Sequence record: OR352948.1
Reading direction: 5' to 3' (one strand)
Origin: Escherichia phage AV118
DNA length: 64,000 nt
Shown here piece by piece: positions 6,702 to 63,117 of this stretch. The notes beneath the pieces were generated by a model that worked only from the letters and a program-made list of their open reading frames with translations, searched no databases and was not told where the DNA came from. Position 1 is the first letter of the stretch, and each line of letters opens with the position of its first letter. A program made the translations under genes and the position numbers.

Positions 6702-7501
6702 ATACCTTTAAATTTGGAGTAAATTATATTGTGGTACGATATATCAGGAAACCCTTTATCGACCGCAATTTTTCTAAACTTATTAGGACTTATTTTACCA
6801 CACTCCATCCATAATGCAAACAACTCGTCAAAATGCTCATATGCTGGACCTCGACGAGCTTTTGACACAGCAGCACTTATGCGAGCCTTTTTCTCAGAAT
6901 CAAGGTTTTTAAGAGAATTACTTATTTTATTTTTTTGCTCTTCTGAATTGAAGGTGCCTTTTTCCCAGCCTAAAGGTTGGCTTCCTTCATGGAACATTTT
7001 TCTTGAAGTTCCATTGGTATACCATATTTTACCTTTATTGTGCCCTGATGCTTTATATTTTGGTGAGCGTCCTTTTATAAATCCTTCAGGTATAGTAGGA
7101 GCAAATGTTTGTTCAAGGGTTTCTGGGTTATACGAATGTATGTTATTTTTGGCGTTATGAGACCCATATAATGGGTGATTTTTACCAGAAACATCACGCC
7201 CAAAGAAACCAGTTGGTGATGCCAAAGACATATTCATATACAAAGGATTTTTATGAGCTTGAACTCTAATTTGATAGTCCTTTTCCACCTTTAAAGCTTC
7301 TTCTCGTGTTGGATGTTCGCTCAAAATACAAGAATCAAACAACGTAGGATTTTCTAAAAGTTCTTTGTTATAAATTTTACGATAGGCTTTAGATAGAATA
7401 GTACCATGATACCCGTTTAAATGTTTTTCTAAGCTAGTCGAACCTATGTAAAAAGGTGGTAGCTTATCTCCAGAATAAATTGTCAAATAGACTATAAACA
7501 T
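6698..7501 (-). mobile_element. Free-standing GIY-YIG-type homing-endonuclease-like gene (Seg-like) with its own terminator, promoter and SD
   Basis: From the internal ATG the product starts MFIVYLTIYSGDKLPPFYIGSTS (GIY...YIG-like) with downstream GKNHPLYG and SGHNKGKIWYTNG DNA-binding-like repeats; strong SD aaggag; lies where T4 carries a-gt. Confidence 0.5.
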
Positions 7502-7525
7502 ATATTTCTCCTTTGATTTAAGGAG

Positions 7526-7555
7526 ATTATAACACGCCTTTAATGAAGCGTAAAC
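7526..7555 (-). promoter_or_regulatory. Sigma70-type promoter for the homing-endonuclease gene
   Basis: Minus strand reads GTTTAC, ~17-18 nt spacer, TGtTATAAT, about 25 nt upstream of the SD. Confidence 0.45.
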
Positions 7556-19814: not shown

Positions 19815-19854
19815 TTGATAGGTCTATAATAACATAACCATAGACCTTGTAAAC
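19815..19854 (-). promoter_or_regulatory. Promoter/stem-loop cassette
   Basis: Plus strand ttgataggtctataataacat...gtaaac; minus strand gives GTTTAC -35 and a TA-rich -10 inside a ggtctat/atagacc inverted repeat. Confidence 0.4.
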
Positions 19855-23958: not shown

Positions 23959-24003
23959 TGTTTTGATAGGACTACTATAACATAGTCCTATCAAGATGTA
24001 AAC
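23959..24003 (-). promoter_or_regulatory. Promoter/stem-loop cassette
   Basis: gataggact-actataacat-agtcctatc, a 9-bp inverted repeat with TGtTATAGT in the loop on the minus strand; GTTTAC 17 nt upstream. Confidence 0.45.
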
Positions 24004-24402: not shown

Positions 24403-24452
24403 CTCCTCTAGTAAGTAAGGTTTACTATAACACAACCTGAGGAGAAGTAAAC
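24403..24452 (-). promoter_or_regulatory. Promoter/stem-loop cassette
   Basis: ctcctc...tttactataacac...gaggag...gtaaac. Confidence 0.4.
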
Positions 24453-24463
24453 TGATAGATGCC

Positions 24464-24491
24464 AAAAAGCCCCGACCTTTCGGAAGGGGCT
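24464..24491 (-). terminator. Rho-independent terminator downstream of rI
   Basis: Minus-strand RNA agcccc-ttccgaaaggtc-ggggcu followed by UUUUU; same sequence recurs at 39588-39615. Confidence 0.6.
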
Positions 24492-27038: not shown

Positions 27039-27581
27039 TCATTCTTTTATTTCCAGTAGTTTATTTGATTTAAGGTAATTAGCCTTTTCTAGGACTTCAG
27101 AAGCATATTTACTTCCAGCACTTGTCTTCCATCCTGCATTATATGAGGATATAGCTTTTCTTATATCCCCATTATGTATATTTAACCAATAAGAAAATTC
27201 GATATAAGCCCATCTGGCTGAATTAGACCGCTTAGATAGCATTTTCTTAATTTGGGCATCAGACATATTATAACCAAGCTGGTTAATTCTTGCCCTCATT
27301 GTTGGTAGATAATTTTGGAACATTCCATACGCATGGTGACCTTTCTTATCTTTAAGATTAATACCGGCAGATGATTCCTGCCATAGTATTGCGGCCATTA
27401 TGTATCCAAGTCCTTTCTTATGCATATTTTCATGCGTTTTAAATTTTCCGTCCTTAGAAAACTGTTCCCCAAACTGATAAGCATAATTCAAGTTATCGAG
27501 TTGGACATTACTAAAAGTATGCTCGGAGCTATGTGCTGATAACGAAAGAGCAAATAGACCAGCGAGTAGTGCTTTTCTCAT
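27039..27581 (-). CDS. Secreted protein, possibly lytic-transglycosylase-like (vs.1 position)
   Basis: Signal peptide MRKALLAGLFALSLSAHS; 180 aa. Confidence 0.45.
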   Translation of the reverse strand: MRKALLAGLFALSLSAHSSEHTFSNVQLDNLNYAYQFGEQFSKDGKFKTHENMHKKGLGYIMAAILWQESSAGINLKDKKGHHAYGMFQNYLPTMRARINQLGYNMSDAQIKKMLSKRSNSARWAYIEFSYWLNIHNGDIRKAISSYNAGWKTSAGSKYASEVLEKANYLKSNKLLEIKE

Positions 27582-27589
27582 GTTTACCT

Positions 27590-28048
27590 CTAGATTTTAA
27601 TCACTGCTTTAGAAGCTTTTCCTGGTAGTCGTTTACTGTTAATAATAGCCATTCTACATTGAAGAGTCTTCATTTTGAATGCCGGATTTTCGCGACAAAC
27701 TGTAAGTCCTAACCAAAGATTTCCGTCAGTTATTTCTAAACGGCCTGGGCGATATTCGACACCTTCGACAAAATCTTCATCAACATCCGGACGTGCCGGC
27801 ATTGATAAAAATTCTGCAACTTCTTTAACGTGATTTTTTACTTTATGAAATAATTCAAAAACGTAATTCTCATCTATTTCTCTCTGGATGGCACGATCTA
27901 AGAGATGTTGAGAATACTTGATATGAAAGCCTGGTAGTCCAAGAGACTTTGCAGCATCTTTTATACCGGCATTTATTTTGCGGAACTCCGTTTCAAAGAT
28001 TCGACGGAGTTTATTACGGCGGATAAAAACATCCGAATTGATAGTCAT
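27590..28048 (-). CDS. regB: Sequence-specific endoribonuclease RegB
   Basis: 152 aa, near-identical to recalled T4 RegB (MTINxxVFIRRNKLRR...PGKASKAVIK). Confidence 0.85.
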   Translation of the reverse strand: MTINSDVFIRRNKLRRIFETEFRKINAGIKDAAKSLGLPGFHIKYSQHLLDRAIQREIDENYVFELFHKVKNHVKEVAEFLSMPARPDVDEDFVEGVEYRPGRLEITDGNLWLGLTVCRENPAFKMKTLQCRMAIINSKRLPGKASKAVIKI

Positions 28049-28056
28049 TTTGATTT

Positions 28057-28105
28057 CTCCTCTAGTTGACAGGTCTATAGTAACACAACTAGAGGAGAAG
28101 TAAAC
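28057..28105 (-). promoter_or_regulatory. Promoter/stem-loop cassette upstream of regB
   Basis: Perfect 12-bp inverted repeat ctcctctagttg/caactagaggag around tctatagtaaca, with gtaaac at the end; the regB SD is part of one arm. Confidence 0.5.
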
Positions 28106-28109
28106 TACT

Positions 28110-28325
28110 TTATTGATAAAATGGAGTTAAAGCCCAGGATTCTTTAGATACTATATTGGCGAAATGCCTCATCTCTTCGATTTGGCGACGACGCTGGTCA
28201 GCATAGTCTTCTTCGCCTTCTTCCTTACAGTCTTCAAGGTCTTCTTCAAGATACTTTAAGTATTCACTACAAATTTTGTTGACCTTTTCTTGGAAGTCCA
28301 ATAACCCAGTAATAGTAGAAGCCAT
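28110..28325 (-). CDS. Hypothetical acidic protein (vs.3 position)
   Basis: 71 aa ORF. Confidence 0.4.
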   Translation of the reverse strand: MASTITGLLDFQEKVNKICSEYLKYLEEDLEDCKEEGEEDYADQRRRQIEEMRHFANIVSKESWALTPFYQ

Positions 28326-28591
28326 TAGTATTTTTCCTCAGGTCGAAATACCGCACGACATGCCCACATACTGGCTTCTTTTAGATGTTGCTTAGCGTAC
28401 TTAAGAGCCTGCACTGCATCCATATCTTCTTTGGTTTGTTGCTCTGTTTCATTTTCTTTCAAGATATATGCTTCTTCAATCAGAGCATCAAACAACAATC
28501 CAAGACGGACTTCAGCATCTTTAATAGCGTTCACTTTACCAATTTTATCATCGGTATGCGGCTTGTAACCTTTAATATCTTCAATCGACAT
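28325..28591 (-). CDS. Hypothetical helical protein at the T4 vs.4 (Acb2) position
   Basis: 88 aa from the internal MSIEDIK start; second ORF after regB, where T4 carries vs.4; no sequence verification possible. Confidence 0.35.
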   Translation of the reverse strand: MSIEDIKGYKPHTDDKIGKVNAIKDAEVRLGLLFDALIEEAYILKENETEQQTKEDMDAVQALKYAKQHLKEASMWACRAVFRPEEKY

Positions 28592-30018: not shown

Positions 30019-30080
30019 TTAGTTTCTCTTTTAGGTTGGGCCATTCCGTGGCGCATGAATTGTCCATTTCTGTATTTACC

Positions 30081-30129
30081 CCTCCAAGTAATTATGAATA
30101 TACTATCACAATTCTAGGAGAAAGTAAAC
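30081..30129 (-). promoter_or_regulatory. Promoter/stem-loop cassette (variant)
   Basis: cctccaag...tatactatcac...ctaggag...gtaaac. Confidence 0.35.
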
Positions 30130-30131
30130 TG

Positions 30132-30434
30132 TTATTTACCTTTAATTACTTTAGCTGCTTCGATAGCCGCTTGCTGAAGGTCATCCATAGACATACCAAA
30201 TTTAGAAGCAAAGTTATCAATTTTCTTTTCGACAGCATTCAAAGGCTTGGCCTGTTTACCTTCATTAGCGCCAGGAAGAGCGAGAATACGCTCTTTGTCA
30301 ATATAAAGGCTTACAAGTTTCTTACGGTCTTTATCGGACAAATCATGAAATGAATGGGCCTTTTTATTTATAGCGGCTTCTAATTTACCTGCACTCACTC
30401 GCGCTTCAGTAATAAATTCTTGATATGTTTTCAT
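30132..30434 (-). CDS. Internal-protein-like head protein with capsid-targeting N-terminus
   Basis: Starts MKTYQEFITE|A, matching the T4 IP capsid-targeting sequence with an (L/I)xE protease site. Confidence 0.6.
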   Translation of the reverse strand: MKTYQEFITEARVSAGKLEAAINKKAHSFHDLSDKDRKKLVSLYIDKERILALPGANEGKQAKPLNAVEKKIDNFASKFGMSMDDLQQAAIEAAKVIKGK

Positions 30435-30764: not shown

Positions 30765-31178
30765 TTAGTAAATTGATTTACCATAGTATTTGTACCAAGT
30801 CGGACGTTGAGCAATTTTTTCATCTAAGCGTGCTTGACTTATCGCAATGGACGCTTCAGACGGGACGTAATTATTACGAAATTCTATAGGAATGTCGGAA
30901 ATATCCTGGACAGTCGTGTCCTTGATTTTGAAACCACGTTTCAAGCATTCAGCGATTAGTTCGATTTGACGTAAACGTAAAAATTCGAGTTTGTCGTAAA
31001 AGAATGTTACGTGACCTGTGCCTAAGATAAATGTTGGAGAGATTTTAAAATCCTTTACACGTTTACCGTTTTGAACATGTTTACGGACTGCACCAAATAC
31101 GCGTGGTAATTCACGATACTCAGCCATAAGATGTTGGTCGGTCAGTTCAGAAACAAGTGTTAAATTGATACGGGTCAT
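30765..31178 (-). CDS. denV: Endonuclease V (pyrimidine-dimer DNA glycosylase)
   Basis: From [12 protein letters not shown] it is 138 aa and near-identical to recalled T4 DenV. Confidence 0.9.
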
Positions 31179-31183
31179 AATTT

Positions 31184-31235
31184 CCTCCAAGTAGTTGATG
31201 AATGTATAGTATCAAAGTCCTTGGAGGAAGTAAAC
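31184..31235 (-). promoter_or_regulatory. Promoter/stem-loop cassette upstream of denV
   Basis: 8-bp inverted repeat cctccaag/cttggagg around gtatagtatc, with gtaaac at the end; the denV SD ggagg lies in one arm. Confidence 0.5.
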
Positions 31236-31236
31236 A

Positions 31237-31518
31237 CTATTTTTCTGAAGCGCCTGAAATATATTTTTCAAGACGTTGTTTCATTAGCGAGCCGTTCTTA
31301 GCGATTTCTTCCGGTTTATCGCACATACGTAACAAGGCTTCAAGCTTAGCGATATCGCTGGTACGTTCAAATTTGCGAGTATCTATCTTACTAGCAAGTT
31401 CAGAAATACGTGCTAATAGACTTTCAGCTTCAACCAAAGCTGCACCTAGCTTAGTTGCAAATGTGTCAGTAGCTTCATTAAGAATAGATTCTGATAAAAA
31501 TTCATTGTATGTTTTCAT
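31237..31518 (-). CDS. Internal-protein-like head protein (ipII/ipIII position)
   Basis: From the internal start [10 protein letters not shown]|S; lies between e and denV as ipII/ipIII do in T4. Confidence 0.55.
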
Positions 31519-34204: not shown

Positions 34205-34249
34205 TGTTTTAATAGGACTACTATAACATAATCCTATAATTATGTAAAC
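34205..34249 (-). promoter_or_regulatory. Promoter/stem-loop cassette
   Basis: aataggactactataacataatcctat...gtaaac. Confidence 0.4.
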
Positions 34250-35494: not shown

Positions 35495-35541
35495 TTTAAT
35501 TTGATAGGACTACTATAACATAGCCCTATCTTGTTGTAAAC
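35495..35541 (-). promoter_or_regulatory. Promoter/stem-loop cassette
   Basis: ttgataggactactataacatagccctatc...gtaaac. Confidence 0.4.
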
Positions 35542-39587: not shown

Positions 39588-39615
39588 AAAAAGCCCCGAC
39601 CTTTCGGAAGGGGCT
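39588..39615 (-). terminator. Rho-independent terminator (repeat of 24464-24491)
   Basis: Same agcccc...ggggcu hairpin plus U-run on the minus strand. Confidence 0.55.
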
Positions 39616-41823: not shown

Positions 41824-41869
41824 TTGTTTTGATAGGACTACTATAACATAGTCCTATCGTGTTGTAAAT
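41824..41869 (-). promoter_or_regulatory. Promoter/stem-loop cassette
   Basis: gataggacta-ctataaca-tagtcctatc, a 10-bp inverted repeat. Confidence 0.45.
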
Positions 41870-62352: not shown

Positions 62353-63117
62353 ATGGCAACTTATGATAAAAATCTTTTCGCCAAGCTAGAAAATCGTGGT
62401 GGGTATTCTCAGACAAATGAGACCGAAATCCTCAATCCATTTATCAATTTTAATAATTATGAGAATAGTCAGACATTAGCCGATGTTCTAGTGGCAGAAA
62501 GCATACAGATGCGCGGTATTGAATGTTTTTATGTTCCACGTGAATATGTTGCCGTGGACCTTATCTTTGGTGAGGACCTTAAAAATAAATTTACTAAAGC
62601 ATGGAAATTTGCTGCATATCTGAACTCTTTTGAAGGTTATGAAGGAGCGAAATCGTTCTTCAGCAACTTCGGAATGCAAGTTCAAGACGAAGTTACATTA
62701 TCTATTAACCCGGGTCTTTTCAAACACCAGGTCAACAATCAGGAGCCCAAGGAAGGTGATTTAATATACTTCCCAATGGACAACAGTTTGTTTGAGATTA
62801 ACTGGGTTGAACCATATGACCCATTCTATCAAGTAGGTAAAAATGCGATTCGTAAAATTACTGCAGGCAAGTTTATTTACTCTGGCGAAGAAATCAATCC
62901 GGTGCTTCAGAAAAATGAAGGTATCAATATACCTGAATTTAGTGACTTGGAACTTAACCCTGTTAGAAATCTTGACGGTATCCATGACATTAATATCGAT
63001 GAATATTCTGAAGTTGAGCAAATCAATTCAGAGGCAAGTGAATACGTTGAGCCGTATGTAGTAGTTAACAACCGTGGTAGACAAAATTCACCGTTTGACG
63101 ACGGATTTATGAATTAA
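62353..63117 (+). CDS. 14: Neck protein gp14
   Basis: 254 aa; size and order as T4 gp14. Confidence 0.85.

Follow-up and report, generated by a model that had tools for sequence, protein, structure and literature searches.

A hairpin enclosing the early promoter of regB may occlude the ribosome-binding site on read-through transcripts of an RB69-like phage

The regB locus

The DNA analysed here (hereafter the window, i.e., the whole stretch of 64,000 nt) comes from an RB69-like (Mosigvirus) T4-type phage and is 98–99% identical to such phages. Its regB gene is collinear with RB69 regB and 98% identical, at the DNA level, to the annotated RB69 locus. The genes surrounding the hairpin described below are all on the minus strand, and the features of the regB upstream region are collected in Table 1.

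Table 1. Features of the regB upstream region, from regB to the gene before it (positions in the window).
Feature	Position	Strand	Remarks
regB	27590-28048	minus	152 aa, sequence-specific endoribonuclease; Pfam REGB_T4 E = 6e-69, residues 3-151
regB ATG	28046-28048	minus	
Candidate RegB/S1 target, 11 nt, GGAGAAATCAA	28050-28060	minus	First 6 nt within stem
Hairpin 3' arm, CAACTAGAGGAGAA in mRNA sense	28055-28068	minus	Carries the Shine-Dalgarno sequence
Shine-Dalgarno GAGGAG	28057-28062	minus	Within 3' arm, 8 nt before ATG
GGAG, expected RegB target	28057-28060	minus	Expected cut between 28059 and 28058
Hairpin loop, 17 nt, TGTTACTATAGACCTGT	28069-28085	minus	Carries TG, -10 and predicted start
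Predicted transcription start (+1)	near 28070	minus	G, 7th nt after -10; placed by rule
-10 hexamer TACTAT	28077-28082	minus	In loop
Extended -10 TG	28084-28085	minus	In loop
Hairpin 5' arm, TTCTCCTCTAGTTG	28086-28099	minus	Anti-Shine-Dalgarno and promoter spacer; covaries with 3' arm
-35 GTTTAC, T4-type early promoter	28100-28105	minus	Adjoins 5' arm; TAC invariant, GTT nearly so
Upstream gene, Vs.3-like ORF, 71 aa	28110-28325	minus	Stop codon TAA 28110-28112

The ORF preceding regB is 40% identical to T4 Vs.3. The possibility that this 71-aa gene is an unrelated insertion bounded by the promoter cassette was considered and rejected; as the gene is a diverged Vs.3 homologue, gene replacement at the regB junction is without evidence. 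Its stop codon ends just 4 nt before the regB -35 element, so that read-through RNA would run straight into the regB cassette. Farther upstream, genes are tightly packed from about 30018 down to 28110, and the terminator scan gives no convincing terminator from the next upstream cassette (at about 30131) down to regB. From this arrangement, transcriptional read-through into regB appears plausible in this phage. The upstream cassette (30065–30135, minus strand) reads GTTTAC-TTTCTCCTAGAATTGTGA-TAGTAT-...-CTTGGAGGGG, with weak CTCC/GGAG pairing, and precedes a 36-aa ORF (ATG at 30067) that overlaps the 5' end of vs.8. The promoter of this cassette is the probable source of read-through into regB. 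On the other side, vs.1 and vs lie downstream of regB, vs.1 starting 8 nt past the end of regB, and no promoter cassette is seen between regB and vs.1.

Sequence and predicted folding of the inverted repeat

The earlier note on this DNA had pointed to a perfect 12-bp inverted repeat before regB (ctcctctagttg / caactagaggag, at 28057–28068 and 28086–28097 on the plus strand). The repeat is present and is actually perfect over 14 bp (TTCTCCTCTAGTTG at 28055–28068 and CAACTAGAGGAGAA at 28086–28099, plus strand), with 17 nt between its arms, and it reaches 19 nt if two mismatches are allowed. In mRNA sense, from 28112 to 28046 on the minus strand, the region reads TAA AGTA GTTTAC TTCTCCTCTAGTTG TGTTACTATAGACCTGT CAACTAGAGGAGAA ATCAAA ATG. 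The further claim that the Shine-Dalgarno sequence (SD) GAGGAG, with its GGAG, is part of one stem arm is borne out as well, this arm being the 3' one.

In sense-strand RNA, the hairpin is found in the MFE and centroid structures alike. The MFE of a 96-nt RNA is -23.9 kcal/mol (z = -3.5; none of 200 shuffles folds as well), and the 14-bp stem is predicted at -21.4 kcal/mol on read-through RNA. Rfam covariance models give no match at E <= 1 on either strand of 27500–28500.

The repeat is also the longest perfect one of the 64-kb window with a loop of at most 40 nt. Two repeats of at least 12 bp are found in the window, compared to 0.33 ± 0.69 expected from 40 dinucleotide-preserving shuffles. 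It is thus extremely improbable that the repeat is a functionless chance palindrome or a by-product of adjacent consensus elements. The CTCC/GGAG core does pair automatically where a CT-rich spacer meets an SD, but CTCC is missing from the spacer of most other cassettes in the window, and the distal stem positions, which the SD core does not include, covary from lineage to lineage (see below). Moreover, as the same layout is present in T4 and many T4-type phages with other stem sequences, the repeat is not a chance match.

Two other readings of the hairpin were rejected. An intrinsic (Rho-independent) terminator is dismissed because the stem is not followed by a U-tract, the next sequence being AAAUCAAAAUG / AAATCAAAATG; the terminator scan calls no site at 28055–28099 either. 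A protein-binding palindrome was also discarded, as the arm sequences vary while their complementarity is retained.

An early promoter is nested in the hairpin

The 5' arm of the hairpin is the spacer separating the -35 and -10 elements of regB's own early promoter, whose extended -10, TGT-TACTAT (28085–28077), falls in the loop. The start predicted from this promoter is located two bases ahead of the 3' arm, so that it is enclosed by the stem, as is the -10. When 25 regB upstream regions are compared, the spacing, the TG and the TAnnnT positions are invariant or nearly so; the promoter hexamers and TG are near-constant and the stem positions variable. The promoter fits TTTACW-N17-TAYWAT, the form published for T4/PST cassettes (TTTACW...N17...TAYWAT; PMC4122927). 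It is missed by a generic sigma-70 scan because TTTACT/TACTAT agrees with TTGACA/TATAAT at just 8/12 positions, and its assignment relies on conservation and on its fit to the T4-type consensus. The T4 late promoter TATAAATA is absent from the hairpin, the promoter being of the early GTTTAC-N17-TGnTACTAT type. Stop codon, promoter (28077–28105), SD and ATG (Table 1) thus follow each other in a PeSL-type (promoter-early stem-loop) layout, which will be considered below.

As the 5' arm is flanked by the -35 and the -10, RNA made from this promoter does not contain it and cannot form the hairpin, wherever its exact start is. Consistently, promoter-proximal RNA (starting at 28070 or 28072) is predicted to fold at 0.0 kcal/mol, GGAG being unpaired with a probability of 0.80–0.98. 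On read-through RNA, in contexts of 141–340 nt, P(unpaired) is predicted to be 0.00 for every base of GAGGAG. According to these models, the hairpin would be able to form only on RNA entering from upstream.

RegB self-cleavage and the accessibility of the SD

In T4, RegB is established to cut its own SD, resulting in autoregulation (Sanson and Uzan 1993 and Piesiniene et al. 2004, as summarised in PMC3014915; PMC2988021). This cleavage is reported to be conserved among T4-related phages, RB69 being one of those sequenced (PMC3014915), and takes place at a GGAG, rarely a GGAU, in the regB SD. RegB needs its RNA single-stranded, secondary structure being inhibitory (PMC1702504; PMC3014915), as illustrated by the structured GGAG sites of T4, which resist it (PMC1702504). 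When GGAGAAATCAA is compared with the published target consensus, GGAGRAYARAA (PMC1702504), 8 of the 11 positions agree, and this candidate target is predicted to be single-stranded only in the promoter-proximal RNA. RegB self-cleavage uses this open, promoter-proximal leader and not the hairpin.

The earlier note had proposed an autoregulatory switch, in which refolding of one and the same regB mRNA would give either ribosomes or RegB access to the SD and its GGAG. Both elements are indeed in the stem, and RegB cleaves its own SD, a reaction that structure blocks (PMC3014915; PMC1702504). Such a switch is nevertheless very unlikely. The 5' arm, being promoter spacer, is absent from promoter-made transcripts, and the promoter-proximal leader is thus unable to fold; neither an alternative pairing partner nor a RegB-dependent refolding trigger was found, and nothing in the sequence points to RegB-dependence of hairpin formation. 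The predictions for read-through RNA leave the helix permanently closed (P(unpaired) = 0.00), which argues for a static block rather than a switch. The other parts of the proposal fare better. Folding is predicted to hide the ribosome-binding site (RBS), the SD having a P(unpaired) of 0.00 on read-through RNA, and it would shield GGAG, since RegB requires single-stranded RNA; only the toggling of a single leader between a protected and an exposed state falls. In these models, the hairpin would sort transcripts by their start point, and would not toggle one leader between two states.

Conservation and covariation across T4-type phages

A RegB profile identified 41 regB loci in IMG/VR, whose upstream regions were compared. 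Together, the window, T4 and the IMG/VR loci give 29 distinct regB upstream sequences, which were folded. In 25 of these 29 read-through folds, the SD pairs with a CTCC located just past the -35, at -14 to -21 kcal/mol, while the promoter-proximal RNAs of the set are predicted at about 0 kcal/mol. T4 regB has the same layout with another distal stem (GTTTAC-TTTTCCTCTTGACTG-TGGTATAAT-...-CAGTTAAGAGGAG), and distal stems differ from lineage to lineage: TAGTTG/CAACTA, TTGACTG/CAGTTAA, TTTATG/CATAAA, TTTTAGT/ACTAAAA and TGTAG/CTACA. In one locus (L028), the SD is GAGGAT and is matched by a 5' arm reading ATCCTC. In Karamvirus-like loci, an inner hairpin surrounds the -10, and a short CTCC/GGAG helix closes the structure.

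Covariation was assessed on an alignment anchored by sequence alone, on TCC and GGAG, since GGAG is misaligned in several sequences of a plain MAFFT alignment, which makes the latter unsuitable for pair counts. In the anchored alignment, two-sided changes occur at 10 of the 14 stem pairs. The number of two-sided change cells is 47, compared to 20 ± 3.5 after shuffling, and none of 500 shuffles reaches 47. The covariation score is 0.301, versus 0.113 after shuffling and no more than 0.106 when the register is slid.

The SD-pairing stem is kept in about 10 of 12 regB lineages. SD pairing and the hairpin are absent in two lineages (L029-32 and L036-37), and the hairpin is thus not indispensable. 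The SD hairpin is also absent from a distant, Aeromonas phage 44RR-like locus (L042), where an intrinsic terminator (GGGCTCC-TA-GGAGCCC, then ATTTTTGTTTT, at about 1405–1500) lies upstream of regB and is followed by a GTTTAC...TGATAGAAT promoter. This terminator and promoter are an alternative way of uncoupling regB from upstream transcription. A distant locus (L043) has a G+C-rich tetraloop hairpin, AGGCC-TACG-GGCCT, directly 5' of the regB GGAG (at about 1440–1476). That hairpin appears to be downstream of the predicted promoter, hence inside the leader, in an architecture unlike that of the window.

The level at which the pairing acts was also approached by comparing strands. Fold energies in sense and antisense are alike (15 of 25 more stable in sense; Wilcoxon p = 0.36), so that G.U asymmetry is not evidence for an action on sense RNA over one at the DNA level.

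Related cassettes in the window and their exchange between loci

On the minus strand of the window, at least 19 early cassettes are built alike, with two kinds of stems: those enclosing the -10 only, and those in which a pre-start segment pairs with the SD. When each pre-start segment is paired with its own SD, the duplex of regB is the strongest (-19.1 kcal/mol), followed by those of denV (ATG 31178; -17.3), a mobD.2a-like gene (ATG 24396; -14.1), and the genes starting at ATG 38954 (-11.2) and ATG 7501 (-9.2). Own duplexes are on average more stable than cross-cassette ones (-7.0 vs -5.6 kcal/mol; permutation p = 0.002), but own pairing is clearly above cross-pairing in only about 5 of the 19 cassettes, about a quarter being SD-pairing. 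The SD-pairing stem is therefore not part of the promoter consensus, as only some of the 19 cassettes have one.

One recurrent stem enclosing the -10 only, (TT)GATAGGACTA-TGTTATAG-TAGTCCTATC(AA), is found in the minus-strand cassettes at 24002, 41868, 35540 and 34248, with the SD outside. It spans 23963–23994, 41831–41858 and the regions near 35512–35540 and 34220–34248, is without a U-tract, and fits the AGNA-loop-TCNT PeSL stem of T4/PST (PMC4122927). The denV cassette (31176–31240, minus), in contrast, is of the SD-pairing kind: GTTTAC-TTCCTCCAAG ... TGATACTAT ... CTTGGAGGAA-ATTATG, with a 10-bp perfect stem at -17.6 kcal/mol. T4 denV (L001, 7354–7416, minus) has the same design, with the compensated stem ATCTCCTGTAG / CTACAGGAGA.

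Three other observations were made on these cassettes. A terminator-like hairpin, TTCCGAAAGGTCGGGG then CTTTTTGG, is identical at 24470–24485 and 39594–39609 (both minus); the former copy lies directly upstream of the early cassette at 24452, forming a true terminator-promoter composite, and the regB cassette is without such a terminator. A variant cassette at 7501–7554 (minus) reads TATAAT-CTCCTT-AAATCA-AAGGAG, its anti-SD CTCCTT directly following the -10. Its predicted start is just beyond the 5' arm, which would give the same promoter-dependent occlusion with another geometry. Finally, a (C)TATCAAC-like motif is located at or just after the predicted start of many cassettes (28064–28072, 31194–31202, 19815–19823), and reads CTGTCAAC at regB. 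It looks like a part of the cassette consensus that is independent of the stems.

Cassettes also seem to move. The T4 denV cassette (L001, 7354–7416, minus) is identical at 59 of 63 positions to that of regB in a JS98-like locus (L027, 1434–1494, plus), and is far nearer to it than to its positional counterpart, the denV cassette of the window; both cassettes are also much less similar to their positional counterparts in other phages. This near-identity indicates that cassettes have been exchanged or converted between genes, in line with the proposal of the PeSL papers, and part of the covariation may thus reflect whole-cassette replacement, and not stepwise compensation. Despite this exchange, regB retains a predicted SD-pairing cassette in most lineages.

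These results bear on another explanation, namely that the regB element corresponds to the PeSL cassettes described by Arbiol and Comeau and acts mainly as an attenuator or terminator of upstream transcription, or as a DNA-level recombination module for gene shuffling, with an incidental SD overlap. The 19 or more similar promoter/stem-loop cassettes of the window, the many stems enclosing the -10 but not the SD (such as GATAGGACTA / TAGTCCTATC at 24002 and 41868) and the exchange indicated by the near-identical T4 denV and L027 regB cassettes all fit this explanation. In addition, a reporter assay has shown that transcription is terminated by one PeSL stem (PMC2839356), and a DNA-level role is compatible with the fold-energy comparison (p = 0.36). 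However, the regB stem is without a U-tract, AAAUCAAAAUG following it, and is missed by the terminator scan; recombination requires sequence identity, yet here pairing is conserved while the sequence changes. Furthermore, the SD-pairing stem is present in about 10/12 regB lineages, versus only about 5/19 cassettes of the window. That SD pairing is kept at regB, yet clear in few cassettes of the window, argues for selection for SD occlusion at regB, and the PeSL explanation with an incidental overlap is judged unlikely.

A model for transcript-dependent occlusion of regB

The explanation that we favour, and regard as fairly probable, is that the hairpin forms a composite early-promoter/stem-loop cassette which would occlude the regB RBS, and shield its GGAG, on read-through transcripts only. 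Polymerase engaged at the regB promoter would start in the loop, near 28070, giving an mRNA without the 5' arm and with an open SD. This mRNA would be translated, and then cut at GGAG once RegB accumulates, as expected from the known autoregulation. The polycistronic RNA covering the vs.8 to vs.3-like operon would, on the other hand, carry both arms, and the 14-bp helix would form once the 3' arm is transcribed. It would block 30S binding, and GGAG would presumably become a poor RegB substrate. RegB synthesis would thus be strictly dependent on its own early promoter, with the read-through RNA still able to supply the downstream vs.1 and vs genes. The functional steps, i.e., the presence of read-through RNA in this phage and the block of translation and cleavage on such RNA, are those that we infer.

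In T4, the early promoter of regB is shut off 2–3 min after infection, and the middle promoter Pvs.7 starts at 64382 (PMC2988021). T4 regB is at 62740, with Pvs.7 about 1.6 kb upstream, and the read-through RNA would there include Pvs.7 transcripts. A homologue of Pvs.7 (a MotA box plus a -10) was sought in the window and not found, so that read-through in the middle mode is supported for T4 only.

A related proposal gives the buried GGAG the main role: it would spare long polycistronic transcripts from RegB, so that vs.1 and vs stay expressed. It draws on the need of RegB for a single-stranded GGAG and the resistance of structured GGAG in T4 (PMC1702504), on vs.1 lying 8 nt past regB with no cassette seen between, and on the full pairing of GGAG predicted in the long RNA. 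Other SD-pairing cassettes, however, contain no GGAG, such as those with GAGGAA at ATG 38954 and ATG 10573, which indicates that RegB shielding is not the general reason for this design. We consider it quite unlikely as the main explanation. It is nevertheless not exclusive of occlusion of the RBS on read-through RNA, as both effects would come from the same helix, and it may form part of that mechanism.

Relation to known systems and biological meaning

Hairpins of this kind are known in T4. The SD of e, soc, 49 and I-TevI is in the 3' arm of a helix on long, upstream-started transcripts, an arrangement that is conserved in relatives of T4. That transcripts begun at a promoter inside the hairpin escape this sequestration has been demonstrated in the case of e and I-TevI, and is accepted in that of soc and 49 (PMC3014915). 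As in these genes, the internal promoter of regB is predicted to yield a translatable RNA without the 5' arm. Their internal promoter is however a late one (TATAAATA), which delays expression until late in infection, whereas that of regB is of the early, sigma-70 type. Unlike in these genes, the regB 5' arm is itself the -35/-10 spacer, and regB expression is predicted to be restricted to the first minutes. Aeh1 mobE, of an Aeromonas phage, and T4 segB provide another parallel, as a hairpin hides the RBS of a tightly limited nuclease gene; these are homing-endonuclease genes, for which no embedded early promoter is described (PMC3014915).

The regB module also resembles PeSL cassettes in that it spans the upstream stop codon, an early promoter with a stem-loop, and the SD and ATG, is repeated in the genome and bears signs of exchange. 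The published reading of PeSL stem-loops is that they terminate or attenuate transcription and serve as sites of recombination (Arbiol 2010, PMC2839356; Comeau 2014, PMC4122927). Unlike PeSL stems as so interpreted, that of regB has no U-tract behind it, extends across the -10 and the start site, and is paired with the SD, and the text of the PeSL papers contains no discussion of SD-stem pairing (PMC2839356; PMC4122927). With the known RegB autoregulation, the present case shares the gene, the SD GGAG and the early promoter; that autoregulation, in which a role of the hairpin is undescribed, needs an accessible SD, whereas the hairpin concerns read-through RNA. regB is absent from the RBS-sequestering hairpin cases of the review (PMC3014915) and, likewise, was not found as one by full-text searches; the primary regB papers may mention it. 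RBS control by a promoter-embedded hairpin being already known for T4 genes, regB is most likely an additional, early-promoter case.

A broader, more tentative idea, for which the odds are rather low, is that SD-pairing promoter hairpins provide a general translational insulation of T4-type early cassettes, including those of regB, denV, the mobD.2a-like gene and others. If so, these genes would be translatable and RegB-sensitive only on RNA from their own early promoter, their read-through or middle-mode copies would be silent and RegB-resistant, and part of the PeSL stem-loops would be translational, and not transcriptional, devices.

RegB puts an end to early phage gene expression and must itself be produced only briefly. 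Promoter shut-off and self-cleavage are the known controls of regB, to which the hairpin would add a third safeguard, encoded in cis. This would account for how regB resides within a long transcription unit and yet is not expressed at later stages. The overall view of T4 gene regulation is unchanged, late genes being already well known to use the mechanism. The presence of this design at denV, and at further early genes, nevertheless suggests that some PeSL cassettes may tie translation to promoter identity.
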